IMG/VR virus record: IMGVR_UViG_3300029260_000512
Span: 1-42,997 of that record
Reading direction: 5' to 3' (one strand)
Source of the DNA: a virus
Length of the DNA stretch: 42,997 bases
Position numbers and translations under genes: made by a program. Of the stretch, positions 12,341 to 35,881 are shown piece by piece (position 1 is the stretch's first letter; every line of letters starts with the position of its first letter). Below the pieces are notes generated by a model. That model had not been told where the DNA came from. It saw only the letters and a program-made list of their open reading frames with translations, and made no database searches.

Positions 12341-13609
12341 TCAGGTCACCGCGCCTTGCCGCCATTGGGCGTGCGGGCTGTTGTGATAAAACGACAATCT
12401 TGGTTCTGTCTCGGTCAGAAACACGTTAAAACCGCGCTCACGTAGCCACTTATGCCAGCGCTCCAACGCATCGAGAATCTGCCGCTCTGCGTACGTGTGA
12501 ATGTAAGTACGATCTAATTTTGATAGGGCGTGATTTAACAGCAGCTCACCAGCCAGATACTCCACCCCCAAATCGGCCCACGTTGTACGGGCTAGCTTAC
12601 GCAGGTCATGGGAATGCCACCGCCCACCGCTGGCAGTCACTACCAGATCAAACACGGCTGAACGGGATAGCGGCTTACCCTTCGATGCACCTGGGAACAG
12701 ATACACGCCCCGGTAACCATTGGCTTGCTGATAAGCGCGGTAACGGGTTAGCAGCGTCACGGCCATGGGCGTTAACGGCAGGCGGTGCTGTCGTTTTGAT
12801 TTTGTGTTGTCGGTGGGGATAGTCCACGTGCGCGCTTCCAGATCGAATTGAGGCCACTTAGCTAAACGCGTCTCCCCTATGCGAGTGCCAAACAGCAGCA
12901 TTAATAAAAGCAGGAAACACCCCGGCGGCTCGCACGAACGTAGGGCGCTTATCAGATCGGGCACATTGGCAGCGGTCAGCGCCCCCGCTTTAGCCGGGGT
13001 TTTCGCGTCGATGAAATCACCCACATTCACGCCCGCGAAAGGGTCAGCATCCAACAGGTTCAGCTTGCGGGCTTGCTTAAACGCGGCTTTGATCACACCA
13101 AAAATCAGGCGAACGTAAGCAACGGAATAATGCTCTTGCAGCGGCCACACCAAGCCACTGTCGATACACGCCGGGGTAATGCCCGCCAGCGGCCGGGCAC
13201 CGAACAGGGGCAGCAAGTGACGATTAACGGCGGTTTTGATCGATGATTTTCGAGTAGCGGATAAACGGCCATGGGAAGCCGAACGGTCACGATACCAACA
13301 CAGCAGGTCGGCCACGGTTTCCCAAGCATCGACGCCCACCGGCCCGGCAGGATCGAGCGCCAGCTTAGCCTCCAACTCAGGCAAGCGCGCCAGCAAAGCG
13401 CGGGTGGTCAGCTCCGGGTAATTGCCCACCCGGTGCCAGTGGCCACGCCCACCGGCATAGCGCACCACGTACCAGCTGGCACGCTCACGGGAAGCATGAA
13501 AGCGCACCCGCACCGGGTAGCGCGGGTCGCGTAACTGAGTAATTGAGGGGTCTTGAATGTGACGCTTGATAGCCGCGTCAGAAAGGGTAACAGCGAGGGT
13601 TTTAGGCAT
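12341..13609 (-). CDS. int: Tyrosine integrase (P4-like, with N-terminal arm-binding domain)
   Basis: 422 aa. C-terminal catalytic signatures (GTRIGE..., HDLRK, LNHA....TYIHTY) and an N-terminal DUF4102-like region. Confidence 0.85.
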   Translation of the reverse strand: MPKTLAVTLSDAAIKRHIQDPSITQLRDPRYPVRVRFHASRERASWYVVRYAGGRGHWHRVGNYPELTTRALLARLPELEAKLALDPAGPVGVDAWETVADLLCWYRDRSASHGRLSATRKSSIKTAVNRHLLPLFGARPLAGITPACIDSGLVWPLQEHYSVAYVRLIFGVIKAAFKQARKLNLLDADPFAGVNVGDFIDAKTPAKAGALTAANVPDLISALRSCEPPGCFLLLLMLLFGTRIGETRLAKWPQFDLEARTWTIPTDNTKSKRQHRLPLTPMAVTLLTRYRAYQQANGYRGVYLFPGASKGKPLSRSAVFDLVVTASGGRWHSHDLRKLARTTWADLGVEYLAGELLLNHALSKLDRTYIHTYAERQILDALERWHKWLRERGFNVFLTETEPRLSFYHNSPHAQWRQGAVT

Positions 13610-16654: not shown

Positions 16655-17517
16655 GCAGCACCCCGCGCAATTTCGTTATCAAAATGGCGCTCCCACTCAG
16701 GCACAGACAAACGCTTGCCGCTGATCGTCTTAGCAAACAAGCGCCCACCTTCGGCCCAGCTATCCCGCCGCCACATGCCTCTAGGGGCTTTACCGCCCTT
16801 GTTAAGAGGCTGGCCAGCGTCAAGCCAAGACTTATGTTTGATGGACGACATTTCCTCAAAGCGCGCTTCTATATCTGCTGCAACCCGCCAATCATCAGGG
16901 TGATTCAGATACATATCGCGTAGCTCTTCCTCGCTCATATACGGGCAAAAAACGCAGCTACTCTTATGCACATCAGGCCAGCCCAAGTGCGCCAGCAACC
17001 CCTCCAGGCGGTCTCGGGTCAGCCCCAAATCAATAAGCGGGTAACGGTATTCGGCTAGGTCGTCTTTAGGAGGAGTGAACCGCTTAGCGCGCTTACCCTC
17101 ATTCGCTTCAATGCCAATAAGCCAAACTGGGTGCGTAATACCTTCATCTTTCGCCCATGCGGCCAACACATCGCCTTTAAATTTCTTACTACAAACATGG
17201 GCACCACCGGGCATGATCGGCACGATACCAAGACGATGACACCACTCAGCGATGCTTTCGCCCGCCTTGCGCGTGATCACCAGGCGATCACCCAGCGCCT
17301 GCTTAACTCGCTCAATGGTGCGATAGGTAACTGCAAACTCAGCACCAGGGTCACTAAACACTGCTTTATCAAACCTTGGCAGGGCTGCATCGAGGTTGGC
17401 GCGGCTTATGCCTAAGTACGCAGCTGCTGCAGCCCGGTGCTGATCCATAGCTATCAGTGCGGTGCTATCCATACCGCCGCCGTAAGAAAGCAGCACTTGT
17501 TTAGCAACCCCACTCAC
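16651..17517 (-). CDS. PP-loop ATPase (PAPS reductase / adenine-nucleotide alpha-hydrolase superfamily)
   Basis: N-terminal SYGGGMDS PP-loop motif and a C-terminal CVFCPY motif. 288 aa. Second gene of the leftward early operon. Confidence 0.6.
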   Translation of the reverse strand: MSGVAKQVLLSYGGGMDSTALIAMDQHRAAAAAYLGISRANLDAALPRFDKAVFSDPGAEFAVTYRTIERVKQALGDRLVITRKAGESIAEWCHRLGIVPIMPGGAHVCSKKFKGDVLAAWAKDEGITHPVWLIGIEANEGKRAKRFTPPKDDLAEYRYPLIDLGLTRDRLEGLLAHLGWPDVHKSSCVFCPYMSEEELRDMYLNHPDDWRVAADIEARFEEMSSIKHKSWLDAGQPLNKGGKAPRGMWRRDSWAEGGRLFAKTISGKRLSVPEWERHFDNEIARGAA

Positions 17518-17735
17518 GCCGCCCCCTCACGCGCACTAATAGCGGCCACGTACGGGGCATAGATCCCGTTGTAATCCAGCTTGCCCGCCGCTGCTTTCAC
17601 GATGCGGCCAGCAGCTTTCGCGGTGGGGGCGCGGTCTAGGTAATACCAGCTACGCACCGTGCGGTATTTCTCGCCCAGCAGCGTAGCGGCAACATCCATC
17701 CCGCCTACATCATCAATCCAGCGGCTTAAATCCAC
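17514..17735 (-). CDS. Cro-like small HTH regulator
   Basis: Divergent from the CI-like gene. TLLGEKYRTVRSWYYL resembles Cro/YdaS-type HTH proteins. The start is uncertain (GTG at 17735 or ATG at 17699). Confidence 0.5.
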   Translation of the reverse strand: MDLSRWIDDVGGMDVAATLLGEKYRTVRSWYYLDRAPTAKAAGRIVKAAAGKLDYNGIYAPYVAAISAREGAA

Positions 17736-17913
17736 GGCTTATACACTCATTGACACATATTGTGGACAAAACTAGCGCAATTTAACCGACCTAACAACGG
17801 TTTTTCATCGTCGCGGCCACAAAAAGTGTATTATTATTCCAATAACCGCTATCAAACTGTGGCGCAACCGCACACCCACAGACGGCCACCGCCGGGCAAA
17901 AAAGGGTTAAACC

Positions 17914-18546
17914 ATGCAAGAGAACATCACAGGCCAACGCCTACGCGAACTCAGAGCGCGGCGCGGTATGAAAGCCGTCGATTTAGCCAAAGCGCTAGGC
18001 ATTCAGCGCACCCGCGTAAGCAACTGGGAAACCGGCATACGCAACCCCCAGCGTGAAGAGCTGGTAAAGCTGGCCAGCGTGCTAGATGTAAGCCCCGCCT
18101 ACCTGATCGGCTGGATTAACGAAGAGATTTACTCCACCCACCAGCCCATAGAACGCAACAGCCTAACGCTCAACAACGGCGAAACCGTCACGCTAGAAAG
18201 CGCCACCAGCGCCCACGCCTATAGCGAGCAATTTCTAAACGCCCGCGACCTAAAGGCTCAGCAGCTCATGGCCCTAACGGTAGACGACGACGCCATGAAC
18301 GACGTGATATGCAAAGGCGACACCGTGCTAGTGGATATGCAGCGCAAACGCAGCGGCGGGCGCGACCTCTTCGCCATGCTAGTGAACGGCAGTATATGGG
18401 TGCGGTGGGTACGGCCTGAGCTAAACGGCACGTTTACCGTCAGCGCCGAAAACAGCACCCAATACCCCGACCAAACGCTAACCGAAAAGCAGCTAGAAGC
18501 ACTTGATATTATTGGACGAATCACACGAATAGAGCGCGACCGCTAA
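17914..18546 (+). CDS. CI-like repressor (XRE HTH plus S24 LexA-like peptidase domain)
   Basis: N-terminal HTH (LRELRARRGMKAVDLAKALGIQRTRVSNWETG). The C-terminal S24-like half contains MNDVICKGDTVLVD and a Lys downstream. Confidence 0.85.
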   Translation: MQENITGQRLRELRARRGMKAVDLAKALGIQRTRVSNWETGIRNPQREELVKLASVLDVSPAYLIGWINEEIYSTHQPIERNSLTLNNGETVTLESATSAHAYSEQFLNARDLKAQQLMALTVDDDAMNDVICKGDTVLVDMQRKRSGGRDLFAMLVNGSIWVRWVRPELNGTFTVSAENSTQYPDQTLTEKQLEALDIIGRITRIERDR

Positions 18547-23249: not shown

Positions 23250-23501
23250 CGCTACTCTCCCCCTGTCGCTGCAAAATCAGCGACCGGGTTTGGAAGCCCG
23301 AACGGATATTGGCGCACTAGCGCCCCCTTTCATCGTGTAGGCGCTATTTTTGTGCCCGCATGATGCACTATGGCGGGCCGTGCGTGGGGCGCTTCGGCGC
23401 GCCGGGTTTCCAATGTCCTCGGTCTTCCAACCCGCGTACGGTTCGCCTCCATTGTTTGGAAGCAATGTGGCGAACTCCAACAGACTTGGAGATCCACTAA
23501 A
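23250..23501 (+). ncRNA. Highly structured leader or candidate regulatory RNA upstream of the ORF6N-like gene
   Basis: At least eight hairpins. They include two with identical loops TTTGGAAG (23285..23300 and 23450..23467), an antiterminator/terminator-like alternative (23311..23324 versus 23318..23351) and an SD-sequestering stem (23476..23490). Confidence 0.4.
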
Positions 23502-24284
23502 ATGAACATCCCCACCATTTCAGTTTCTGGCGTTCAGCTACCCTATATCGAGCACCAGCAACAACCCGTCGTCACTTTCACAATGATAGACACAGCGCAT
23601 GGCCGCCCAAGCGGTACAGCAAGAAAGCGCTTTAACGACAACAAGCGCCATTTTGTTGAAGGCGAAGACTACTATCCTATTGATTCTGATAGATTGTCCG
23701 AAATTCGGACAATCTATCCAGGCCTGTTTCCCGATGCCATGAAGCGCGTCACTTTCTTCACCGAAACCGGCTACCTCATGTTGGTCAAATCGTTTACCGA
23801 CGACCTCGCTTGGCAAGTGCAGCGCCAGCTCGTCAAAAGCTATTTCCGCGTAAAAGGGGCGATGCAGCCCACCGCCGCCGAGCCCATCCCCGCGCCCATC
23901 GACCACCGCCAGCGCGAACAGCTTACCAACGCCGCTAACGCCGTGTTTCGCAATTTCGGCGGCATGCGCCAAAGCGCCACCGGCTGGTTTTACAACGGCG
24001 TACGCACCGACTACTGCCTAAAGCGCATCGAAGATCTAAGCCAAGACGACTTCCCGGCAGTGATGGACCGCCTCCAAGCCCTACGTAACAACGTGCGCCA
24101 ATACGAAGATTTCCGGCACGATATCCAGCAGTCGTTTTTTAAAGAGGTGGTAGGCGAAGGCCACCCGTACACGGCCTGGGTCAGCAAGCTAGCCGGTGGC
24201 CAACACCACATCGGTAAGCGCCCGGACTGGAAAGCGATAGCCAAACAAGTGCTAATCCACAACGGTTTACTCACCAAACAGTAA
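23502..24284 (+). CDS. ORF6N/KilA-N-like DNA-binding protein (possible antirepressor)
   Basis: The N-terminal region FFTETGYLMLVKSFTDDLAWQVQRQLVKSYF resembles ORF6N-type domains. The start is at MNIPT. Confidence 0.5.
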   Translation: MNIPTISVSGVQLPYIEHQQQPVVTFTMIDTAHGRPSGTARKRFNDNKRHFVEGEDYYPIDSDRLSEIRTIYPGLFPDAMKRVTFFTETGYLMLVKSFTDDLAWQVQRQLVKSYFRVKGAMQPTAAEPIPAPIDHRQREQLTNAANAVFRNFGGMRQSATGWFYNGVRTDYCLKRIEDLSQDDFPAVMDRLQALRNNVRQYEDFRHDIQQSFFKEVVGEGHPYTAWVSKLAGGQHHIGKRPDWKAIAKQVLIHNGLLTKQ

Positions 24285-25401: not shown

Positions 25402-25761
25402 GTGAATAATGAGATCCAGCAGTTTGACCGCCTGATACCTAGCTATGAGCTTGCACTGTGCGCCATTGCTGAACTTATGTCGCACCACTATAAGAGCGTG
25501 CTAGAAAGCACCTCGATAGGCCCATGCGAGGGTGGCTATACCGTCGCGGTCAACTGCGAAACCGGCACTGACACGGTGGGCTTCACCCTGCAGGAAGCGC
25601 CGTACAAAAGCTATCAGGAAGCGCTAAGCGCCTTTGGCGCGATGCTAGACGACATTACCGCCCGCTACGAAGGCCGGGCATCATGGAAAGATGAGGAGTG
25701 GTGGGACCAGCACCACGAAGACCTCAAAGCCCGCTACGGCTTTGAGCTGGTGAGCTTCTGA
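25402..25761 (+). CDS. Hypothetical protein
   Basis: 119 aa with a GTG start. The start is uncertain. Confidence 0.4.
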   Translation: MNNEIQQFDRLIPSYELALCAIAELMSHHYKSVLESTSIGPCEGGYTVAVNCETGTDTVGFTLQEAPYKSYQEALSAFGAMLDDITARYEGRASWKDEEWWDQHHEDLKARYGFELVSF

Positions 25762-25846
25762 AAGTGAGCCACACTAAAACGCCCACCCGGTGGCTAGACC
25801 GGGCGGGCGTTACGCAACGACATAATACCAATGGGGATTAGCTATC

Positions 25847-26002
25847 ATGTCAGCAACAGAATATACCACGATTGCACGCACACCGTTAAACCAGCTGCAT
25901 ACGCTGCCGCTGCACCTGCTGTGCGCCTACCTATACCAATGCCCAGCCATCAGCCGCCGTGCGCTAGAACGCATCGTGCGTATCCATGAGGAGGTCGTAT
26001 GA
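25847..26002 (+). CDS. Small protein (51 aa), not in the ORF track
   Basis: MSATEYTTIARTPLNQ... Its stop overlaps the next ATG (ATGA). Confidence 0.35.
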   Translation: MSATEYTTIARTPLNQLHTLPLHLLCAYLYQCPAISRRALERIVRIHEEVV

Positions 26003-26298
26003 TTAATTACTTCCAAGACAACCCAATGGAGGCGCTAACGCGCCTCATTAAAGCGGCCCAAGGAGACAGCCACCAAAGCCACCACGTGCGTCGATTCCTG
26101 CTTGGTTTGTACAACGCTGAAGAATGGCCCTTTGAAATGAATCGCCTCAGGGCGCTGGATCGTCAGCTGCAAATGGCCTGCTTTCGGGTGTTAGAGCTTG
26201 ATGTCGTGACATGTGAGCGTGATATACACGAGTACCTGGAAAATGGCGGCACTATTTTTCAGCAATTCTGGCAGCAGGAAAGCGCCAGCAGTGATTGA
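25999..26298 (+). CDS. Hypothetical protein
   Basis: 99 aa. RBS GAGGAG. Followed by a strong terminator. Confidence 0.5.
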   Translation: MINYFQDNPMEALTRLIKAAQGDSHQSHHVRRFLLGLYNAEEWPFEMNRLRALDRQLQMACFRVLELDVVTCERDIHEYLENGGTIFQQFWQQESASSD

Positions 26299-26597: not shown

Positions 26598-27110
26598 CTA
26601 TCGCAACGATTTAACCAGTGTCAGCTCATCGCTGGGCAAAGGCTTAAAACCGTATCGCTTATAAAAATCCACCGCATCAGGCAACGCGTTTATCATCAGG
26701 GCCACAGACCCCACTAAACGCGACTGATCGGCTGCAGTTTGCCAAGCAGCCAGTAGCAAACGGCAACCGACCCCCTTGCCTTTTAGTCGGCTATCGACGG
26801 CTAAACGCCCTAACGTGGTCACTGGAACGCTTCGGGGCATGTTCTTTTTTAACTTGCCCATCATTTTTTCGCGGTCCACTGCACCAGATGCAAGCGCAAA
26901 ATATCCTAGCACTAGCTTTGTGCCTGGGGCGCACACTACATAGACCGTAGTAGCACCACTTTGATGGTTGCCTAACGCTTCACTGGCTAAAAACTTATTT
27001 AGCGTGAACACGCCACAATCGAAGTGGCTTAGGTCGTGCTGAGGCGTTAAGAGCTCTGGGGCTGCGACGACGCCCAAATCGGTGTTTTGTTGAGAAGTTT
27101 CTGAAAGCAT
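26598..27110 (-). CDS. GNAT acetyltransferase toxin (TacT/KacT-like)
   Basis: 170 aa. HDLSHFDCG motif and acetyl-CoA site LKGKGVG. RBS GGAGGA. Paired with a DUF1778-type antitoxin. Confidence 0.8.
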   Translation of the reverse strand: MLSETSQQNTDLGVVAAPELLTPQHDLSHFDCGVFTLNKFLASEALGNHQSGATTVYVVCAPGTKLVLGYFALASGAVDREKMMGKLKKNMPRSVPVTTLGRLAVDSRLKGKGVGCRLLLAAWQTAADQSRLVGSVALMINALPDAVDFYKRYGFKPLPSDELTLVKSLR

Positions 27111-27355
27111 GGGTCCTCCGATGCTGGCTGTTTAATAGCCTCTTCGAAGAACGCGTAGTCGGTTTCATTCAGCATGTAGAATCGTCGGTTCAGCAGTACC
27201 TCTTCGGCTTTTCGACATGCGGCTTCCACCACGAAACTGGTTCGATCCCCCCCCAGCTCCGCTACGGCTCTATCGATCAAGGCGCGTTTTTTAGGGTCAA
27301 CACGCATATTGAGGGCCAGTGGCTTAGCCACTGCCTCAGCAGCTGTGCTTTTCAT
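27047..27355 (-). CDS. DUF1778 RHH antitoxin (TacA/KacA-like)
   Basis: LNMRVDPKKRALIDRAVAELGGDRTSFVVEAACRKAEEVLL is the classic DUF1778 pattern. The ORF overlaps the toxin start by 64 nt. Confidence 0.8.
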   Translation of the reverse strand: MKSTAAEAVAKPLALNMRVDPKKRALIDRAVAELGGDRTSFVVEAACRKAEEVLLNRRFYMLNETDYAFFEEAIKQPASEDPCFQKLLNKTPIWASSQPQSS

Positions 27356-27763: not shown

Positions 27764-28411
27764 ATGTACGTCAGGGGATACCTACGCGCCAGCACGGCAG
27801 AACAGAACGCCCAGCGGGCACGCAGTACGCTAGAACACTTCGCCGCTGAACATCGCCGTGAGGTAGTGAGCTGGTATATCGAGAATGTGAGCGGCGCTAG
27901 CAGCCAGCGCCCAGAACTCAGGAGGCTTCTGGAAGATGCCAAGCAAGGTGATGTGCTGCTGATAGAATCGGTAGACCGCCTTTCCCGCCTGGGGGCGGCA
28001 GAGTGGCGGCACCTGCGGGGGCAGATTGAGGCGCTAGGGTTACGGGTGGTGTCGCTGGACCTTCCCACTAGCTACGCAGCCATGGCCATGCCCACCCAAG
28101 GCGAGGATTTTACCGCCCGCATGCTCGATGCGCTGAATACCATGATGCTAGACGTACTCGCAGCGGTAGCCCGCAAAGACTACGACGACCGGCGAACGCG
28201 CCAGCGCCAGGGGATAGAGCAAGCAAAGAAGGAAGGCAAATACCAGGGCAAGCGGCCCAACAAGGCACTACACCAGCGAATTGAAGCGCTATTGAACGCC
28301 CGCGACGGTGAAGGCAAACCGTTCACCACGGCGCGCATTTGCGAACTAGCCGGGTGCGGTGAAACCACTGTGAAAAAGGTAAAGCGGGCTATGCGCGAAA
28401 AGGCACACTAA
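27764..28411 (+). CDS. Serine recombinase (resolvase/invertase family)
   Basis: N-terminal YLRASTAEQ catalytic Ser motif, SVDRLSR, and a C-terminal HTH. Confidence 0.85.
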   Translation: MYVRGYLRASTAEQNAQRARSTLEHFAAEHRREVVSWYIENVSGASSQRPELRRLLEDAKQGDVLLIESVDRLSRLGAAEWRHLRGQIEALGLRVVSLDLPTSYAAMAMPTQGEDFTARMLDALNTMMLDVLAAVARKDYDDRRTRQRQGIEQAKKEGKYQGKRPNKALHQRIEALLNARDGEGKPFTTARICELAGCGETTVKKVKRAMREKAH

Positions 28412-29009: not shown

Positions 29010-29239
29010 GCGGTTAGTTTACCGGGGGTTGTGGGTTATGTCGCGCTAGCGACATGCAAGCCGCCCACTGAACTATAAGCAGGCATTATAGGTGCGCGGC
29101 GAACGGGCGTTAGCCCGCCCAACTATGCGGAACCCCTTGCCACTGCTAAACGGGGTTTGGGGTGGTTTTTAGCGGGGTCCAGGGGTGCAACCCCTGGGAC
29201 AACCAGCCCGGCAGGGCTGGGCGTCAGTGTAGAGCGGTT

Positions 29240-29450
29240 CTGCGCTTGCGCAGGCATTTAAAGCCCTTGACCTTGTGCCCTTAAAAGAGCATCCGCGCTT
29301 GCGCGGGCATTGTGGATAAACCCCACGCTAGTGGGGGTTAGCTGAACCTATTTAACTACATAAGAGAAGCATATTAACGGTGTACAGCTAATTTATTCTC
29401 ATATTACCTAATTCTATTTCTAAATCACTTAATTTTACATCTTTAAAGGG
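29240..29450. other. Candidate plasmid-type replication origin
   Basis: Two 19-bp palindrome-containing repeats C(T/C)GCGCTTGCGC(A/G)GGCATT lie at 29240 and 29293. A perfect DnaA box TGTGGATAA (complement of TTATCCACA) lies at 29311..29319. An AT-rich stretch at 29341..29450 carries internal repeats. The region lies downstream of repA, as in IncFII oriR. Confidence 0.5.
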
Positions 29451-29631
29451 GAGTCGAATCATCGGCGGGGGTTGGGCTTTTCGGGGGTGGTGTTTGGCTT
29501 AGATCGGGGAGATTTTGCGCCAGCGCGGCGCTAAAACGGGCGGGGAAATGGGGCAGGGCTACCGATTAGCCACGGGCTTAGCGCCCGGCGTGGGGCGCTG
29601 CGTGGCGTTCTGGGGTGGGGTTGGCGGCGGG

Positions 29632-30696
29632 CTAGTGTCGTCGCTGCCGGTCTAAATGCTCTTCCCATGGCGGGTACTTAATGCGCGCCAGCTGGCGTAT
29701 CTCGGCATAGCTCGCGCCGGGGTTGTTGTCGGAAACCTCTTTAATGTACGCGATCATAGCGAGGTTATAGCGGCGCTGAGCCTCGGCGCTCTCGTCAACG
29801 TCGGGTAGATCGGCCTTGCCCCGGCGCTGCTTCTGCATCGCTTTCGGGCCGCTGCCTGCCATCGCTAGGCGGCTGCGTGCTTCGGCGGCGTCGTGCGCCT
29901 TGGGGAACTGCTCGCGGTGCTTACGGCGGGCTTTCTTAATGCGGTTGCTGCACCAGTCGCGGAACTCCTTAAATTTCTGGTAGCCCACACGCCCCAGCGC
30001 CAGCAGAAAATCCGGGTTGAGTAGCTTCACAGCAGGCCGGGCGCGCTTCGTACCGTCGACTTTCACCTCATGCTGCAAATGCACCGTAAACGCGCCAGCG
30101 AGCTTTAAGCGCCGGAAGGCGCGCCAAAAGCGTTGGCTAGGCTCGGGGGCTTCTGGGGTGCTGCCGGGTGCCAGCAGGCCCGCCACGCGGGCAATTTCCG
30201 CACAGCTACGGTGTTTAAAACCACCATCCGCTAGTGGGGTGCCCACGCGCAAACTGGCGAACTCGGTAAACTGAATGATGGCAGAAAGCACCAGCGACTC
30301 AGCAGCGCGGGCCTCAGATCGGTTACAGCGGGGGTTGCCATCGGCGTTGGCCTTGCCGTTCAGGTTGGCCAGCGTGGGCAATAGGCCGGGGCTGGTGTAG
30401 TAGGCTTTGGCACCGTCTACCAGCGCTTGCAGTGTGGCGGGTAGCCGCCCCTTTTTAACGGGCTGGCAATAGCGCTCAAACTCGCCTTTAGCGGGGTTAT
30501 GCCCGCACCGGTTACCGGTGCCCCACCACTTGCCGTGGTGTTCGTATGGCACGCGCCCCCACGTGAGGGGCTGCGCGTTCTCTGCTGCAGCATCCATTTG
30601 CAAAATCTCGCTTGAGACTTGCCCGCGCCTTGTGCAGCAGTTAAACTCTGGGGAGTCGGTTTTGGTTCCCAGTCGTTTGTTCTGCTGCCAAAACAT
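29632..30696 (-). CDS. repA: Plasmid replication initiator (IncFII RepA-like)
   Basis: 354 aa. The central region (ESLVLSAIIQFTEFASLRVG...SCAEIARVAGL...RFWRAFRRLKLAGAFTV) and the basic C-terminal part resemble the IncFII RepA family as I recall it. The adjacent origin-like region and antisense-control hairpin support the call. Confidence 0.6.
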   Translation of the reverse strand: MFWQQNKRLGTKTDSPEFNCCTRRGQVSSEILQMDAAAENAQPLTWGRVPYEHHGKWWGTGNRCGHNPAKGEFERYCQPVKKGRLPATLQALVDGAKAYYTSPGLLPTLANLNGKANADGNPRCNRSEARAAESLVLSAIIQFTEFASLRVGTPLADGGFKHRSCAEIARVAGLLAPGSTPEAPEPSQRFWRAFRRLKLAGAFTVHLQHEVKVDGTKRARPAVKLLNPDFLLALGRVGYQKFKEFRDWCSNRIKKARRKHREQFPKAHDAAEARSRLAMAGSGPKAMQKQRRGKADLPDVDESAEAQRRYNLAMIAYIKEVSDNNPGASYAEIRQLARIKYPPWEEHLDRQRRH

Positions 30697-30732
30697 CCGA
30701 GAAGCCCCAGCGCCAACTGGGGCTTTTCTTTT
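30654..30732 (+). ncRNA. Candidate antisense copy-control RNA (CopA/Inc-like)
   Basis: Plus-strand promoter TTGCCC (30619)-17-TAAACT (30642). The terminator-like hairpin AAGCCCCAG-CGCCAA-CTGGGGCTT is followed by TTTTCTTTT (30702..30732). The RNA would be antisense to the repA start region. Confidence 0.4.
30702..30725 (-). promoter_or_regulatory. repA leader stem-loop with a 5'-UUGGCG-3' loop
   Basis: A 9-bp stem. On the repA mRNA strand the loop reads UUGGCG, and the structure ends 5 nt before the annotated ATG. Confidence 0.6.
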
Positions 30733-30889
30733 GGGTGTCTATCTAGTTAATTTGTAAGCGTTTTCTATTTCTGGCTTAGCGCCGCCCGGCGCTAAGCATC
30801 GCGTCACTGAGTGCTAATCCTAACACCCACGCCACTTTTTGCCACTATTTGTGAACAAAAAATTTAACTGCTGTCTGCCTGTCCAGCGG

Positions 30890-31123
30890 TTAATGCGGCT
30901 TGACCTCTTCCTCGTCATCGCTTTTTTTAGCGGCCTCTGCCAGCTCATGCCCCAACGCACCGCGAATAAACGCGATGTTGGTACTAAGCCCTTGGTGCAT
31001 CCCCTCGCACGTTAACGCCAAATACTCTAAGTGCTCCAAACAGTTAGCCAGCGTTTCCTCTGCACTCACGCCCACCAGCGGGTTTGCTTGATAGCCTTGC
31101 GTCGTTCCCTGCTGCTCGCTCAT
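30890..31123 (-). CDS. Small acidic protein in the CopB position upstream of repA
   Basis: The start MSEQQG is preceded by GGAGG. 77 aa. A LexA box lies upstream. Confidence 0.5.
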   Translation of the reverse strand: MSEQQGTTQGYQANPLVGVSAEETLANCLEHLEYLALTCEGMHQGLSTNIAFIRGALGHELAEAAKKSDDEEEVKPH

Positions 31124-31163
31124 TGTGTCGCCTCCCCGGTGCGCGTTTGCGCACACCTAAAAA

Positions 31164-31179
31164 CTGTTTATACATACAG
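31164..31179. promoter_or_regulatory. LexA (SOS) box CTGTTTATACATACAG
   Basis: A perfect CTGT-N8-ACAG with an AT-rich core. It lies 41-56 nt upstream of the 31123 start, abuts a TATGAT -10-like hexamer on the minus strand and itself contains a TATAAA. Confidence 0.65.
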
Positions 31180-31534
31180 CATCATACTACACCGCATGAC
31201 GCTATTGGAAAATTGCTAAGCGGGTTTATGCGCTTGGCCGTGATCCTACTGGGCACCGCCGCTTACCCGAAATAACGCTCAACCCAGCACACCTCTATAA
31301 AAACACGGCGCACGCGCAGGGCAAGAATCCGAGCGACTTCTATGCAGAATGGGCCGCTATCGTTTCGCCTACCCCTTTATTAAAACACGCATTCTCAAAG
31401 CGCAACCTAAAACCAAACTGATGAATTTATTCATAATCTTAGGCGCAAACAGCAGACGCTTAGGCAACATATAAGCGACACTTACCAGCAACGGCAATCA
31501 CCGCCCCGGCACCCACCTGGGCATTTTTCACGCA

Positions 31535-31556
31535 CAAAAAAACCGCTGATTAGCGG
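31535..31556 (-). terminator. Intrinsic terminator ending the late operon (CCGCT-AATC-AGCGG-T8)
   Basis: Read on the minus strand, 28 nt after the 31584 stop. Confidence 0.65.
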
Positions 31557-31583
31557 CCCGTGTGCTATTGCGCTTTGTTGCCC

Positions 31584-32165
31584 TTATACCTCCCAGCTCA
31601 GCTCCTCGATGCTGTCGATCTCGCCCGCTTGCAGCTGCGCGGCGTATCGCCCCTCTAGCGCGATCAGCGCGCTGCGCCGGTAGCCAATTTGCTCGTATGC
31701 CGCTTGCACATCGGAAACCGGGTGGTCATCGTGAAACACCCCATCCGAGTCTTTCCATCCCGTGAATGTCGTCATGTTTGCAGCGGCGGCGAATTGTAGG
31801 GATTCGTTGAGGGCTTGGCGGTTGTCGGGGTCACCTGCGTACCGAATGCCGTTGATCGTCACGCCCTGTGCTTCGGCGGCTTTGCGCTGCGGCTCGATCA
31901 GCGCGGCCAGCTCAGCCCGGCGGCGTTGCTCTTTCGCTTGCTCATCCGCTAGTAACTCGACGCTCCGCAGCTTTTGCCCACCGCTGCCAGGGTAGACCGG
32001 GCGTGGCTCACCGGGCTTCTGAACGCCCGCCCACAGTCCGGCGGGGGTAGCGTAAGCGTGAACGATGGTATCAACGGCTAACGCAGGCAGCGGGATTTGC
32101 TGCCCATCGTGCTCAAGGGCGCGCCCGTCAGGCGTAGTGACAATCTGCAAATTCGACATCGGCAA
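31584..32165 (-). CDS. DUF4376-like protein (tail fibre assembly/chaperone-like)
   Basis: The C-terminal half (INGIRYAGDPDNRQALNESL...WKDSDGVFHD...VSDVQAAYEQIGYRRSALIALEGRY) resembles the DUF4376 pattern. It is the last gene of the late operon. Confidence 0.5.
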   Translation of the reverse strand: MPMSNLQIVTTPDGRALEHDGQQIPLPALAVDTIVHAYATPAGLWAGVQKPGEPRPVYPGSGGQKLRSVELLADEQAKEQRRRAELAALIEPQRKAAEAQGVTINGIRYAGDPDNRQALNESLQFAAAANMTTFTGWKDSDGVFHDDHPVSDVQAAYEQIGYRRSALIALEGRYAAQLQAGEIDSIEELSWEV

Positions 32166-33201
32166 AATCTCTCTTCAGAGTGAGTTGGTCCACTAGGTGG
32201 TTAACGGTATTCCAGCTATCGCAGTGCTTGGCGTAAGCCAGGAAGGCGTGTAGATGTTGCTGCACTTCGTCCAGGCTGGCATCACCTCTGGTATAACGGC
32301 GCTGCAGAATTTTCAGGCGGCGTTTAAAGCGCTGAATGTTGCGCTTGCGGGGCAGTATGTGGGTGGCCCATATGCGGTAGCCGCACCAATCCACGCCCGC
32401 GCTGGCAGGGCGTACTTGGGTTTTAGGGTTGAGTGATAGACCGCGCCGCTCTAGCGCCGCTTGCAGCTGGTGTAGCCGCTGCCAGGCTTCGGCTTTGCTT
32501 GGGCAAACGATCACTATGTCATCCATATAGCGCACGTATTGCCCTGCGCCGTGGTCGTCGGTCATCTCGTGATCGACGCCATCTAGGGTGGCGTTAGCGT
32601 TTAGCTGACTGCTAAGCGCGCCAACCGGTTGTCCGATGCCGTCATCATGGCCATAGCCGCGTATCATGGCGCGCCACAGTTGCAGTGTATCTGGGCAGTC
32701 AATCGTCTGAGAAATACTGTCTAGTACGGCATCATGGGGCAGCGAGTCGAAAAACTTGCTTACGTCTGCCTGTACGACGTACACACTATCCCAGCGCCGC
32801 TTAGCCTTTCTGAGCATGCGTTGCAGAGCAAGCACCCCTGCTTGGGTACCCTTTCCCTTGCGACAGGCGTAGCTGTGATAGATAAACCTGCGCTCAAATA
32901 GTGGTTCTACCAAGTCCACCACGGCGTGATGCAGCACCCGATCTTTAAACGGTGGGGCTTGAATCATCCGCATTTTAGGCTCCAGCACCACAAACTCTCT
33001 GGCGCGGCCCGGCTGCCATGTTTTGTGAACCAAGTGGTTGTGAAGGTTTAGGAGGTTTTCTTCCAGGTTGGCGGTGTATTTCACCACCTCTGGCCGGTAG
33101 CGCTTGCGCTTTCTGGCGGCATGATAGCCGCGCATGAGGTTATCGAAATCAATAATGTCTTGATAAAGCGACACCGCATTGTCCTTATGCAGTTCGTGCA
33201 A
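32128..33201 (-). CDS. DGR reverse transcriptase
   Basis: 357 aa. YMDD catalytic box (VRYMDDIVIV). PVGALSSQLNAN matches the DGR-specific (I/L/V)GxxxSQ motif. Lies immediately downstream of the TR. Confidence 0.9.
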   Translation of the reverse strand: MHELHKDNAVSLYQDIIDFDNLMRGYHAARKRKRYRPEVVKYTANLEENLLNLHNHLVHKTWQPGRAREFVVLEPKMRMIQAPPFKDRVLHHAVVDLVEPLFERRFIYHSYACRKGKGTQAGVLALQRMLRKAKRRWDSVYVVQADVSKFFDSLPHDAVLDSISQTIDCPDTLQLWRAMIRGYGHDDGIGQPVGALSSQLNANATLDGVDHEMTDDHGAGQYVRYMDDIVIVCPSKAEAWQRLHQLQAALERRGLSLNPKTQVRPASAGVDWCGYRIWATHILPRKRNIQRFKRRLKILQRRYTRGDASLDEVQQHLHAFLAYAKHCDSWNTVNHLVDQLTLKRDFADVEFADCHYA

Positions 33202-33333
33202 AATGAAACGCGGCCACCCGTAGGCCGCCGCGCTCTATTGATGTTTCGCCGTGAAGCGAGGAAAGCCGCCCCGAGGGATGTGGCACTGCCCGCCAACCCG
33301 TAGGCGGGCGGTTTCTGGCCGGTAAAGCGGTCG

Positions 33334-33444
33334 CTCGCGAGACGCGCCCCGATGTTGCTGTTCGAGTTCGACGCCGAATTGTTGCAGTTCACGTACCAAA
33401 GCCCGGCATTCGCGCCATTGCTCCAGTTGCCGCCGACGTAGGGG
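33334..33444 (-). repeat. DGR template repeat (TR)
   Basis: 111 bp, aligned without gaps to 33900..34010. It carries 24 coding-strand adenines. It would encode nine AAC (Asn) codons in the frame that corresponds to the VR reading frame. Confidence 0.9.
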
Positions 33445-33476
33445 CACATCGAAATAAGCGACTTCCCTTTCTTGCT

Positions 33477-33890
33477 CTACTTGCTGTTACTTTGCTTGCT
33501 GCGCTCGTGGCGCAGCCAGCCACCTAATATGGAGCCAAGGTCATTGATGTGCTGCGCCCAATCACGATATTGGCCGCCGGAAATATAGCCGTAGCGCTGC
33601 GCTTTTCGCACCTTGCGGCGTAGTATCTCTATCTCAATATCCAAGTCGGTGAGGGTGGTTTTCTTCTGATAGCGCTTCCAGGCAGTGAGCGTGATCCGCT
33701 CGATACGCTCAATACACAGCCGCACCTCCGCGCTGAGCAAGTGTCGCTCACTTTTCGGAAAATTCACCAGGGCTCGACGACTGTAATCTTCCAGCTCTTC
33801 CACCTTAGTGAGCATGCCCTCAAAGGGTCGAAGGTGTTGGTACGGGGCGCTACCGCGCCCCTGAGCTTGACGCTGATTTGCCTGACTCAT
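33477..33890 (-). CDS. avd: DGR accessory variability determinant (Avd-like four-helix-bundle protein)
   Basis: 137 aa and basic. Its ATG overlaps the target gene stop (ATGA). It sits between VR and TR, as in the Bordetella phage BPP-1 DGR. Confidence 0.8.
   Translation of the reverse strand: MSQANQRQAQGRGSAPYQHLRPFEGMLTKVEELEDYSRRALVNFPKSERHLLSAEVRLCIERIERITLTAWKRYQKKTTLTDLDIEIEILRRKVRKAQRYGYISGGQYRDWAQHINDLGSILGGWLRHERSKQSNSK
33844..33861 (-). promoter_or_regulatory. GC hairpin downstream of the VR (candidate DGR target-recognition cruciform)
   Basis: GGGGCGC-(4 nt)-GCGCCCC, a 7-bp stem with a 4-nt loop. It lies 38 nt 3' of the VR end, within avd. Confidence 0.5.
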
Positions 33891-35881
33891 GACACGACCC
33901 TCGCGAGACGCGCCCCGAAGAAGCTGAACGAGGCCGACGCCGAATAGCTGCAGTACACGGACCAAAGCCCGGCAATCGCGCCACCGCTCCAGTAGCCGCC
34001 GACGAAGGGGTAATACTCCCCAGCATCACGCCACCGCACGTAGTCCGGCAGCGTGGCGGTGCTGTCGTTACTGGTTGAATAGGTGTCGGGGATAAATTCT
34101 AGCGGGGCTGAATTGCGGAACGTGATGGGGTAAGTGGCGGCACCAGCGTTAGGAACGCTCTCGCCCGTACTTTGCCACGCGCCGTTATAGTCACGCCGCT
34201 CAATGACACTATTGAGCGTACGGGCTCCGTCCATCCACTGATAGACGTTACCCCATAGCCCAACGATGCCGCGATACGTCGCTTGGGCTACGTCAGCGGC
34301 ATCGACAGCGGCGGCGCTGGACTGATTAACGCGGCCCTCGCCCGTTTTCGTTTGGCTATCCATCGTCGCGTTTTCGACCAGGTATAACCACTGAATGGCC
34401 AGCCACATGTCGTAGTGGTGCAGCCTAAAGCCAGCGACGCCGCCCACGTTACGGGCCTCGGCATCTGCCAGGAACTGCGTCAAGCTGCGCGATGCCGTTG
34501 GCGTAACGCCCGGCACAGACTGCAGCTTGCCGCCGCTGAGCGATGCCTGATACTTGCCGTACTGGAATGCGGGCACCTCAGAGCCATTGAGCAAAAACGC
34601 AGGGTGCACCTCATACCCCGCCAGCGGTTGGTCGCTAATCCACCACGCGGGGTCGCCGCCTGCGGTGCCGCGCTTTACGTAGAACTTCGGCACCTCGACC
34701 ATCGCTTGGCCGTCTACCGTCACCTCCTGCATGCCGCCGAATATCGGGTGAGCGTTAAACCAAGAGGTGCTAGGAGTGGCAATGGTTGCGCCGGTATCGT
34801 CGATATGATCCCACGTACCGCCAGGGCCGCCGGTGGCGCGCAGCGCAACACCAATGACTTGGGCAGCTAGCACAGTGACGGCCTTGGTGTAGGTTGAGGT
34901 GGCCGCGCCCTTGTCGTCCACGGCGCGCACGCTAAAGGTGGCGGCTGTGTCGTCCGTCACGTCCGGGGCGGTAACGTCGATAATCTCACCCTCCGTAATG
35001 CCGGTCATTTTGGCAAACGACAGCCCGCCCGCGTCAGTGATCTGATACGTGACCGGATCGCCGTCTGGGTCACTAGCGCCGCTGAGCGATACCTGAAACA
35101 CGCTGTTCTTGGCTGCCTGCGTCGGGGCATTGATCGTAATAGGCCCGACAGGCGGGCGATTGCCCACCACTTCTGCGCTGATCGTTTGCGGGCGGCTACG
35201 GTTGCCCGCGTCATCGTACGCCCACGCTTTAGCGGTAACCGTTGAGCCAATCGGCTCGCCCACAGTGCGCGAGAGCGTGGCGCTGCCTGCCGTGGCAGTA
35301 AACTGCTGGGTCACGCCATCCCACCATCGCACAATAAAAAACGCGATGCTGCCGCCTGTGTGACGAGAGGTGCCCGATGCCGAAACCTCCCAGCTGAACG
35401 TAGCCGCTGTTTGCGCGGCGCTGCTCAGCGCCACCTCAACGGCGGTCGTCGGTGCCTGCCAGCTAAACCCACCCTCATCATCGTCCACCGTGAGAACGTA
35501 GCCCTCATTGCCGCTCAGTGCGGGCAGTGCCAGCTCTCCCGCCGCCTGATTCGCCCAGAACTCGGCCTCATTGCGCAGGGTCTGGGTTTGGTCTCTTAGC
35601 GTATTAGCGGCCTGCGCTTGCTGCTGAGCGGTGACCGCATCGTTAGCGGCATCCTCTGCGCGCTGCTCGGCTTGACGCTGCGCCTCTTCGGCCTGCTGCC
35701 GCGCTTGGTCGGTCGCATCAAATACCAGCGCCGCCCAGGTTAGCGAGCTTTGCAGGTCTTCCGAAAACTGAGGCAGTTTGCCAAAAAACGCATTGGCCGC
35801 AGGCTCGAACGCTTCGTCACCCATTTCGCGATTCGGGGCCGGGCCGGGGTTAATGATCGTGGGGGTTTCTGGAATGCTCAT
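33887..35881 (-). CDS. DGR target: tail fibre / receptor-binding protein with C-terminal C-type-lectin (FGE-like) fold
   Basis: 664 aa. It has an N-terminal coiled-coil, a middle Ig/cadherin-like segment (DPDGDPVTYQITD) and a C-terminal GLWGNVYQWMDG...GGYWSGG...FGARLA, typical of Mtd-like CLec variable proteins. Confidence 0.85.
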   Translation of the reverse strand: MSIPETPTIINPGPAPNREMGDEAFEPAANAFFGKLPQFSEDLQSSLTWAALVFDATDQARQQAEEAQRQAEQRAEDAANDAVTAQQQAQAANTLRDQTQTLRNEAEFWANQAAGELALPALSGNEGYVLTVDDDEGGFSWQAPTTAVEVALSSAAQTAATFSWEVSASGTSRHTGGSIAFFIVRWWDGVTQQFTATAGSATLSRTVGEPIGSTVTAKAWAYDDAGNRSRPQTISAEVVGNRPPVGPITINAPTQAAKNSVFQVSLSGASDPDGDPVTYQITDAGGLSFAKMTGITEGEIIDVTAPDVTDDTAATFSVRAVDDKGAATSTYTKAVTVLAAQVIGVALRATGGPGGTWDHIDDTGATIATPSTSWFNAHPIFGGMQEVTVDGQAMVEVPKFYVKRGTAGGDPAWWISDQPLAGYEVHPAFLLNGSEVPAFQYGKYQASLSGGKLQSVPGVTPTASRSLTQFLADAEARNVGGVAGFRLHHYDMWLAIQWLYLVENATMDSQTKTGEGRVNQSSAAAVDAADVAQATYRGIVGLWGNVYQWMDGARTLNSVIERRDYNGAWQSTGESVPNAGAATYPITFRNSAPLEFIPDTYSTSNDSTATLPDYVRWRDAGEYYPFVGGYWSGGAIAGLWSVYCSYSASASFSFFGARLARVVS
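33900..34010 (-). repeat. DGR variable repeat (VR) at the 3' end of the tail-fibre gene
   Basis: There are 16 mismatches to the TR, all at TR adenines. The VR ends 11 nt before the stop codon. Confidence 0.9.

Follow-up and report, generated by a model that had tools for sequence, protein, structure and literature searches.

A small gene behind a predicted LexA operator upstream of repA in a Halomonas phage-plasmid: a candidate antirepressor for a CI-like repressor with a degenerate S24 domain

Introduction

Why should a phage-plasmid place a LexA (SOS) box in front of a very small gene at the head of its replication operon, outside its immunity region? This question is raised by a 42,997-nt stretch of viral DNA (positions 1 to 42,997 of the IMG/VR record IMGVR_UViG_3300029260_000512; the whole of this stretch is hereafter called the window), in which an open reading frame (ORF) of 77 amino acids (aa) is located between such a box and the leader of the replication gene repA. 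The window is a near-complete Halomonas phage-plasmid of ~43 kb. Its closest annotated relative is a 45.9-kb circular plasmid of Halomonas qaidamensis XH36, and a 43.9-kb contig of a Halomonas metagenome-assembled genome is also near it in sequence. The gene set comprises head, terminase, lysis and tail genes, ParA, a resolvase, a toxin-antitoxin pair, a diversity-generating retroelement (DGR) and a CI/Cro-type immunity region. The product of repA is the one recognisable replication initiator, and no other was found among the ORFs of the window that were scanned.

The answer that we favour is that the host LexA protein silences the small gene through the box, that the small protein would inactivate a CI-like repressor which is itself probably unable to self-cleave, and that the transcript released upon DNA damage may also feed repA.

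Results

A conserved LexA box precedes the small ORF

A pattern search of the whole window upheld the claim of the first-pass annotation that a perfect CTGT-N8-ACAG match is present at 31164-31179: CTGTTTATACATACAG is the only one in the 42,997 nt. Taken alone, a single perfect box in 43 kb is weak evidence and is not significant, as 0.39 such boxes are expected by chance and 31 of 100 shuffled sequences contained at least one. When up to one mismatch to CTGT-N8-ACAG was allowed, 6 matches were obtained versus 12.6 expected, i.e. near-matches are, if anything, depleted. Among the 11 CTG-N10-CAG sites of the window, CTGTTTATACATACAG is the only one with an AT-rich spacer (A or T at 9 of the 10 bases between CTG and CAG), and by our own count it agrees with TACTGTATATATATACAGTA at 16 of 20 positions.

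The details previously noted around the box were found again when the sequence was re-read. On the minus strand a TATGAT hexamer is situated one base from the box, an alternative -10 hexamer (TATAAA, 31167-31172) lies inside it, the box occupies the positions 41-56 nt upstream of the ATG of the 77-aa ORF, and this ORF is preceded by a GGAGG Shine-Dalgarno sequence (Table 1).

The evidence for an operator comes from relatives. After dereplication at 90% identity, 32 small-ORF lineages were retained, and in 23 of these non-redundant homologues a perfect box is found no more than 200 nt upstream of the small ORF (calculated chance ~0.003 per 200 nt). Six further lineages have one arm mismatch and keep CTG-N10-CAG; the rest are one decayed site and two marginal members located in unrelated contexts without a box. 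We also fetched 58 more repA loci. Within the fetched repA loci (425,661 nt in total), 33 of the 39 perfect boxes are concentrated in the 9% of the sequence at a distance of 300-900 nt upstream of repA, in each case just 5' of a small ORF. In no lineage among the repA loci examined was the box seen without the small ORF, and a distant repA clade that lacks the small ORF, and in which repA follows spanin genes, lacks the box as well.

The arms of the box are constant and the spacer occurs in at least nine variants among relatives, whose hosts belong to Halomonas, Aeromonas, Edwardsiella, Vibrio and Pseudomonas (orders Oceanospirillales, Aeromonadales, Enterobacterales, Vibrionales and Pseudomonadales). 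The block ATGCGGTGTAGTATGATGCTGTAT is invariant across Halomonas lineages with diverged flanks and ORF. In the H. qaidamensis plasmid, where the small protein is 43% identical and the upstream flank cannot be aligned, the block ATGCGGTGTAGTATGATGCTGTAT...ACAG is kept with a different spacer. The Aeromonas and Edwardsiella P2-like phage-plasmids have one perfect box each, upstream of a small-ORF homologue of 69 aa (26-27% identity), and a single perfect box per whole element was found in E. ictaluri pEI-2083-2, Pseudomonas phage PARCL1pr and Vibrio phage VPHZ6. Fixed arms and a varying spacer, on elements whose CI proteins have diverged to 27-44% identity, fit a host factor and not an element-encoded one. 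The pattern carries the signature of LexA, an identification made from what is established about the SOS box of gammaproteobacteria (a literature search found no paper on the specificity of Halomonas LexA). We therefore regard the box as very probably an operator of host LexA, and the proposal of an SOS-type operator on the small-ORF promoter stands on its position and on arm conservation.

Two relatives carry boxes before other genes. The P. aeruginosa element pPAC1.3b (L146), which is interrupted by a Tn3-family transposon, has a second AT-rich perfect box, CTGTATATGCAAACAG (2161-2176), upstream of a small hypothetical gene (2230-2475). L129 (IMGVR_UViG_3300021410_000001), which shares the CI family, has a LexA box at ~12920; behind this box are an ORF of 80 aa and a umuD-like gene with an intact Ser/Lys dyad (GDSM ... 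CKRL). Literature searches on PARCL1pr, VPHZ6 and blaVCC-1 phage-plasmids found nothing.

The small protein belongs to an unannotated family

The 77-aa ORF is a real gene. It is co-oriented with repA and lies directly upstream of the repA leader, as had been claimed. Its product has a pI of 4.6 and a net charge of -9. The family consists of proteins of 60-80 aa, and all 35 aligned members are acidic (median pI 4.9, net charge -2 to -9). They share an N-terminal motif, NPL[IV]...DT[IL], and an acid-rich loop that often ends with HPG. The AlphaFold2 model (pLDDT 77) predicts an extended N-terminus followed by a helical hairpin (helices 21-38 and 44-72).

The family is represented by 13 clusters in an index of 5.8 billion proteins, and an exhaustive hidden Markov model search of 1.84 billion proteins returned 31 representatives, 3 of which are long proteins matched in several short stretches and are probably spurious. 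Sequence searches of Pfam, PHROGs, NCBIfam and the PDB, performed with the single protein and with the 35-member profile, gave no match, and no homology to the Tum protein of phage 186, with which the small protein had been compared, was detected. A Foldseek search with the model retrieved generic helical hairpins only (best PDB E 1.4, best BFVD E 0.017); the best BFVD match is an unnamed 70-aa viral protein, 44% identical. The small protein thus represents a family that is absent from Pfam, PHROGs and NCBIfam.

A tblastn search of a phage collection with the small ORF of the window found nothing and the Aeromonas-type query retrieved Vibrio phage VPHZ6; a 14-member small-ORF alignment used as a locus query retrieved close relatives alone. 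Two marginal members without a box, L105 163-381 and L109 2782-2991, were not used as evidence. The former overlaps the start of an integrase gene beside a tRNA end; the latter is placed between a divergent helix-turn-helix repressor gene and a cro-like gene, on a plasmid with an IncFII RepA and ParAB.

The CI-like repressor has lost the catalytic dyad of its S24 domain

It had been assumed that the CI-like repressor carries a self-cleaving S24 domain. The domain itself was recovered with Pfam, but the capacity for self-cleavage was not. In an alignment with LexA, lambda CI and UmuD, the nucleophile Ser is replaced by Ala (DDDAM for G-x-S-M) and the general-base Lys by Arg (VRW for V/F-K-R/K), and there is no Ala-Gly cleavage site in the aligned linker of CI. 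The S119A variant of LexA is non-cleavable, and loss of the dyad suggests that the CI protein of the window should not self-cleave either.

Arg occupies the Lys position in every alignable member of the CI family (H. qaidamensis, E. ictaluri, PARCL1pr, pPAC1.3b and ~25 metagenomic contigs), an invariance that is partly a matter of ascertainment, as the Arg motif was included in one of the two patterns used for the search. At the Ser position the family has S, A or L, a drift that would be expected if catalysis were no longer selected. Taken together, the family (which also includes L068 12627-13280, L069 35084-35731, L070 12201-12857 and L146 6177-6836) is probably non-proteolytic; public records label its proteins "S24 family peptidase" or "LexA family regulator".

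The first-pass annotation had viewed the box as a second SOS input, added to that of a self-cleaving repressor. This premise fails with the loss of the dyad, and if CI cannot self-cleave, the box is more likely the only SOS input of the element. The CI gene is ~12.6 kb from the small ORF, i.e. the small ORF is located outside the immunity region. The two are found together: among 13 contigs with both the CI family and repA, 12 have the small ORF with its box, and the 13th ends before the region upstream of repA. A search for the CI family gave no match in the distant repA clade without the small ORF.

Some further features of the immunity region may be mentioned here. A gene for a 73-aa Cro-like regulator (17514-17735, minus strand; phrog_409) is divergent from CI, and the inverted repeats ACACATATTGTGG/CCACAAAAAGTGT in the interval between them (17753-17829), which are candidate CI/Cro operators, are unlike the LexA box. 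The box was also considered as an operator of CI and this was ruled out, since the CI-cro intergenic repeats are unrelated sequences. In VPHZ6 (L147), the repressor homologue (25649-26167, minus strand) has just 172 aa and lacks the segment with the Lys/Arg strand; VPHZ6 was isolated as free virions, and a truncated repressor may fit a derivative locked into lytic growth.

The small ORF heads a replication unit with a predicted antisense RNA

The window RepA is 55% identical to proteins of Aeromonas and Edwardsiella plasmids, some of whose genes are annotated as repA. The start used here is that called in relatives; an in-frame ATG upstream (30696) would extend the protein to 354 aa. RepA has no Pfam match at E<=1 (PF02387 included) and no NCBIfam match. 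A locus search with the single RepA gave nothing, and it was the RepA alignment, used as a query, that retrieved the loci.

In the leader, the predicted counter-transcribed RNA (ctRNA) would extend over ~30654-30735 and comprises a stem-loop (30651-30670) and a terminator hairpin (30699-30728) followed by a T-run. The antisense promoter and the hairpin are present in 27 of 34 lineages, and RNAalifold supports 10 hairpin pairs, 7 of them with compensatory changes. The hairpin loop is TTGGCG/CGCCAA or a close variant, in flipped orientation in some lineages, e.g. PARCL1pr. Rfam produced only sub-threshold matches in the leader (ctRNA_p42d, BjrC68). The replicon of the window is thus, as judged from this predicted RNA, ctRNA-controlled in the IncFII/IncI style.

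The box and the small ORF are not confined to this type of initiator. In loci retrieved through CI, they precede an IncFII_repA gene (PF02387) in L136 and L142 and a third Rep family in L134 and L135, and an antisense hairpin or promoter is also visible downstream of the box-small-ORF cassette in L130 and L134. In hhalign, the window RepA and the alignment of the L130, L134, L135, L136 and L142 Rep proteins showed no relationship (0.3% probability). The occurrence of the same box and small ORF before non-homologous Rep genes indicates that the cassette is portable between Rep families. The copB-repA arrangement of IncFII plasmids, to which the locus had been likened, was therefore recovered in part: the geometry holds (there is a ctRNA leader, and PF02387 occurs in relatives), but the small protein is no homologue of CopB and the window RepA is not detectably of the IncFII type.

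Downstream of the small ORF the window lacks a terminator on the sense strand, and in 26 of 30 lineages, the window included, no terminator whose stem has at least 7 bp was found there. In the absence of such a terminator, a transcript started at the box would probably enter repA. The strict placement of the small ORF at the head of the rep leader likewise suggests that repA, too, is fed by this transcript, an advantage if the same initiator serves lytic replication. A weak candidate for a constitutive repA promoter is located between the small ORF and the leader (Table 1); it was not called by the promoter scan, and its elements TAGGATT and GTGnCAAAA are kept in Halomonas lineages. Directly downstream of repA there is a 620-nt non-coding gap (29010-29631) with a perfect DnaA box, TTATCCACA (29311-29319, minus strand), a candidate oriV; over the whole window, the count of the DnaA-box pattern is not above chance.

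Discussion

The small protein as an antirepressor, and its alternatives

We propose the following sequence of events. In the plasmid-prophage state, LexA bound over the -10/+1 region would keep the promoter of the 77-aa gene shut. Upon DNA damage LexA would be cleaved and the small acidic helical-hairpin protein would be made, which would then bind the non-cleaving CI-like repressor and inactivate it by direct protein-protein contact. The SOS-induced transcript would run on into repA, out-titrate the ctRNA and raise replication for lytic growth. As an overall explanation this is the best that we can offer, and we hold it at about even confidence. That the small protein is a LexA-controlled antirepressor is, on the present analysis, a claim with roughly equal chances of being right or wrong, and the same balance applies to the claim that the SOS transcript reads through into repA and boosts replication. 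Both are viable and they do not exclude each other.

Antirepressor function is favoured by several observations. On an element whose repressor appears to be unresponsive to RecA, LexA gating is confined to the small ORF; this ORF co-occurs with the CI family, also where the Rep family is a different one; it is missing, jointly with the box, from the distant repA clade that lacks CI-family matches; and the box was never seen without it. Its size (60-80 aa in the family), its acidity, its distance of 12.6 kb from the immunity region and the terminator that precedes its LexA box point in the same direction.

Other observations weigh against this interpretation. The co-occurrence of CI and the small ORF could result from shared ancestry, and the patterns used to search for CI were biased to an Arg-containing motif. 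A consensus promoter scan called no promoter at the box, because the candidate -35 hexamer TTCCAA is weak and fits the consensus at just 3 of 6 positions. In sequence and fold, the small protein resembles neither Tum/DinI nor the PHROG anti-repressors nor any solved structure, and the same element encodes a second protein that is called an anti-repressor by PHROG (ORF6N/Ant-like, 23370-24284). Finally, the well-supported members examined are all situated directly upstream of a rep leader, which a function in replication would explain equally well.

This last point leads to the alternative that survives best, although we consider it rather unlikely: the LexA promoter would mainly drive transcription of the repA leader as an SOS copy-up device, and the small protein would act on replication control instead of on CI, either by CopB-like repression of an internal repA promoter or by Rop-like modulation of the kissing complex between ctRNA and leader. 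An upstream promoter that causes runaway replication is well established for the IncFII plasmid R1. In every well-supported case, whatever the Rep family, the small ORF has the box on one side and a ctRNA-controlled rep leader on the other, it is accompanied by the antisense promoter and hairpin, most lineages have no terminator between it and the leader, and the helical-hairpin model is of Rop-like size. However, relatives with the same repA family use the same ctRNA cassette without the small ORF or the box, the small ORF is distributed in step with the CI family whose S24 domain is dead, and the box is never found without the small ORF, although this would be expected if transcription alone mattered. 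Moreover, the acidity of all members and the lack of a match to ribbon-helix-helix (RHH)/CopB proteins or to Rop make DNA binding unlikely, which also counts against a replication regulator.

A role as an SOS accessory effector, separate from both the lysis switch and replication, is less probable still. Such an effector could be a DinI- or PsiB-like modulator of RecA, an inhibitor of cell division, a toxin or a defence factor. Homologues of dinI are often found behind LexA boxes in prophages (PMC3121763). The small protein resembles DinI in being small, acidic and LexA-controlled, and the second box of pPAC1.3b, before another small gene, and the box of L129, before a umuD-like operon, would suit a function of this kind. 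Against it, the small protein has no match to DinI, PsiB or any other Pfam family, its predicted all-helical hairpin is unlike the alpha/beta fold of DinI, and both the strict position at the rep leader and the co-occurrence with a non-cleavable CI would be left unexplained.

That the palindrome is not a LexA site at all, but arose by chance or serves a regulator encoded by the element, is very improbable: the non-significance of a single match in 43 kb, the negative promoter scan and the want of a paper on Halomonas LexA specificity speak for it, but position and arms are kept in 29 of 32 lineages from at least five host genera, the motif is constant while the regulators of the elements diverge, the repeats of the CI region differ from it, and the box also occurs on elements of P. 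aeruginosa and V. parahaemolyticus, two hosts in which LexA recognises CTGT-N8-ACAG.

Returning to the antirepressor, a more elaborate version can be envisaged, which we advance as a doubtful proposition only. In this two-in-one switch, the NPL[IV] peptide of a new antirepressor family would dock as a pseudo-substrate in the vestigial S24 cleft of a pseudo-protease CI, and the same transcript would override antisense copy control, so that derepression and runaway replication would be triggered together; the arrangement would operate in phage-plasmids of Halomonas, Aeromonas, Vibrio, Pseudomonas and Enterobacterales, with a cassette (box, small ORF and ctRNA) that can move among at least three unrelated Rep families.

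Comparison with known systems

The closest parallel in organisation is provided by the Gifsy prophages, whose small antirepressors GfoA, GfhA and GftA are encoded outside the immunity region and expressed from a LexA-box promoter that follows a terminator, and whose cognate repressor is not cleaved on induction (PMC3121763). The window resembles them in the location of the small gene outside the immunity region, the LexA box, the preceding terminator and the seemingly uncleaved repressor. In contrast, the Gifsy proteins share no sequence similarity with the small protein of the window, whose function is inferred; the Gifsy repressors are short and lack a C-terminal domain, whereas the window CI keeps a full S24-like domain with a mutated dyad; and the window gene heads a ctRNA-controlled rep operon in a plasmid-prophage.

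Tum of phage 186 and AntC of N15, the latter a linear phage-plasmid, are described as LexA-repressed antirepressors that form the SOS input for non-proteolytic repressors (PMC10432266, PMC11652158). The small protein of the window differs from them in its lack of homology (no match to DinI/Tum or to PHROG anti-repressors) and in the position of its gene. In linear plasmid-like phages, proteins of ~60-80 aa encoded beside repA (the TF-smORF/Qtip modules) inactivate cI; these modules are SOS-independent, depend on a dedicated transcription factor and act on an autoproteolytic cI (PMC10432266). Both systems place a small protein of ~60-80 aa next to repA in a phage-plasmid, but the window would use host LexA, its cI looks non-proteolytic and the protein families are unrelated.

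The remaining comparison is with the IncFII plasmids R1 and R100 (copB - copA/copT - (tap) - repA). Common to these and the window are a co-oriented small ORF directly upstream of an antisense-RNA-controlled repA leader and the leader hairpin loop TTGGCG/CGCCAA, a loop also known from CopT and the RepZ mRNA; the relatives L136 and L142 have, in addition, a true PF02387 RepA downstream. The copB promoter is constitutive and CopB is a DNA-binding repressor of the repA promoter. In the window, on the other hand, the promoter of the small ORF appears to be LexA-gated, the small protein is acidic without an RHH or other Pfam match, i.e. it is not CopB-like, and RepA has no PF02387 match.

Feature coordinates and other genes of the element

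The features on which the above reading is based are listed in Table 1.

Table 1. Position, strand and supporting observations of the features discussed (coordinates refer to the window)
Feature	Coordinates	Strand	Details
CI-like repressor	17914..18546	+	Pfam HTH_3 and Peptidase_S24; presumed target of the small protein
repA (321 aa, from MDAAAE)	29632..30597	-	phrog_20951; start as called in relatives, conserved in Aeromonas-type genes
repA leader	30598..30889	-	better conserved than flanking coding DNA; target hairpin GCCCCAG-TTGGCG-CTGGGGC at ~30706-30725
Predicted antisense ctRNA gene	30619..30735	+	promoter TTGCCC (30619-30624), 17-nt spacer, TAAACT (30642-30647)
Weak candidate constitutive repA promoter	30817..30845	-	GTGGCA-17-TAGGAT, between small ORF and leader; inference only
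Small ORF (77 aa, MSEQQG...)	30890..31123	-	ATG 31123, stop 30890; GGAGG Shine-Dalgarno at 31131-31135, 7 nt upstream
LexA (SOS) box CTGTTTATACATACAG	31164..31179		palindromic CTGT/ACAG arms, AT-rich 8-nt spacer; sequence and conservation
Candidate SOS-repressed promoter	31181..31210	-	-35 TTCCAA (31205-31210), 18-nt spacer, -10 TATGAT (31181-31186)
Intrinsic terminator	31540..31559	-	terminator scan; closes the upstream tail/DGR operon

The terminator at 31540-31559 insulates the LexA-controlled promoter of the 77-aa ORF. Upstream of it, the DGR (32128-35881, minus strand) consists of a reverse transcriptase gene (32128-33201), a template repeat (33334-33444), Avd (33477-33965) and a variable repeat (33900-34010), which lies at the 3' end of a tail-fibre-like target gene (33887-35881). 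All 16 differences between the template and variable repeats (111 nt compared) are at template adenines, and the DGR is apparently active.

A toxin-antitoxin pair of the TacA/TacT type (26598-27355, minus strand) encodes a DUF1778 antitoxin and a GNAT acetyltransferase toxin; its identity was judged by the Pfam matches of genes of identical length in the relative L002. A serine resolvase gene (27764-28411) adjoins this pair, and a tyrosine recombinase is encoded at 12341-13609. The ORF6N/Ant-like gene mentioned above (plus strand, 304 aa; match to PHROG "anti-repressor" families with E 1.6e-39) is part of the operon on the CI side and lies upstream of ParA, with no LexA box close by. Its product is possibly a second, SOS-independent induction input.

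Conclusions

LexA-controlled antirepressors as such are already known. What is new in this study is the family of small proteins, the fusion of its gene to a ctRNA-controlled rep operon, which is common to several Rep families and virion types, and the pairing of this gene with a repressor in which an S24 domain survives in vestigial form. The protein catalogue thereby gains a candidate family of small antirepressors. The analysis also points to a trap in annotation: RecA-dependent cleavage should not be read from a label such as "S24 family peptidase" or "LexA family regulator", as the dyad has been lost family-wide here.

If the proposed reading is true, it would explain how DNA damage is sensed by widespread, unstudied phage-plasmids whose repressor merely resembles the self-cleaving type, several of which carry cargo in the form of DGRs, toxin-antitoxin systems and (in Aeromonas) beta-lactamase genes. 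It suggests that, in these elements, induction and the escape from plasmid copy control may be wired to one and the same LexA operator.

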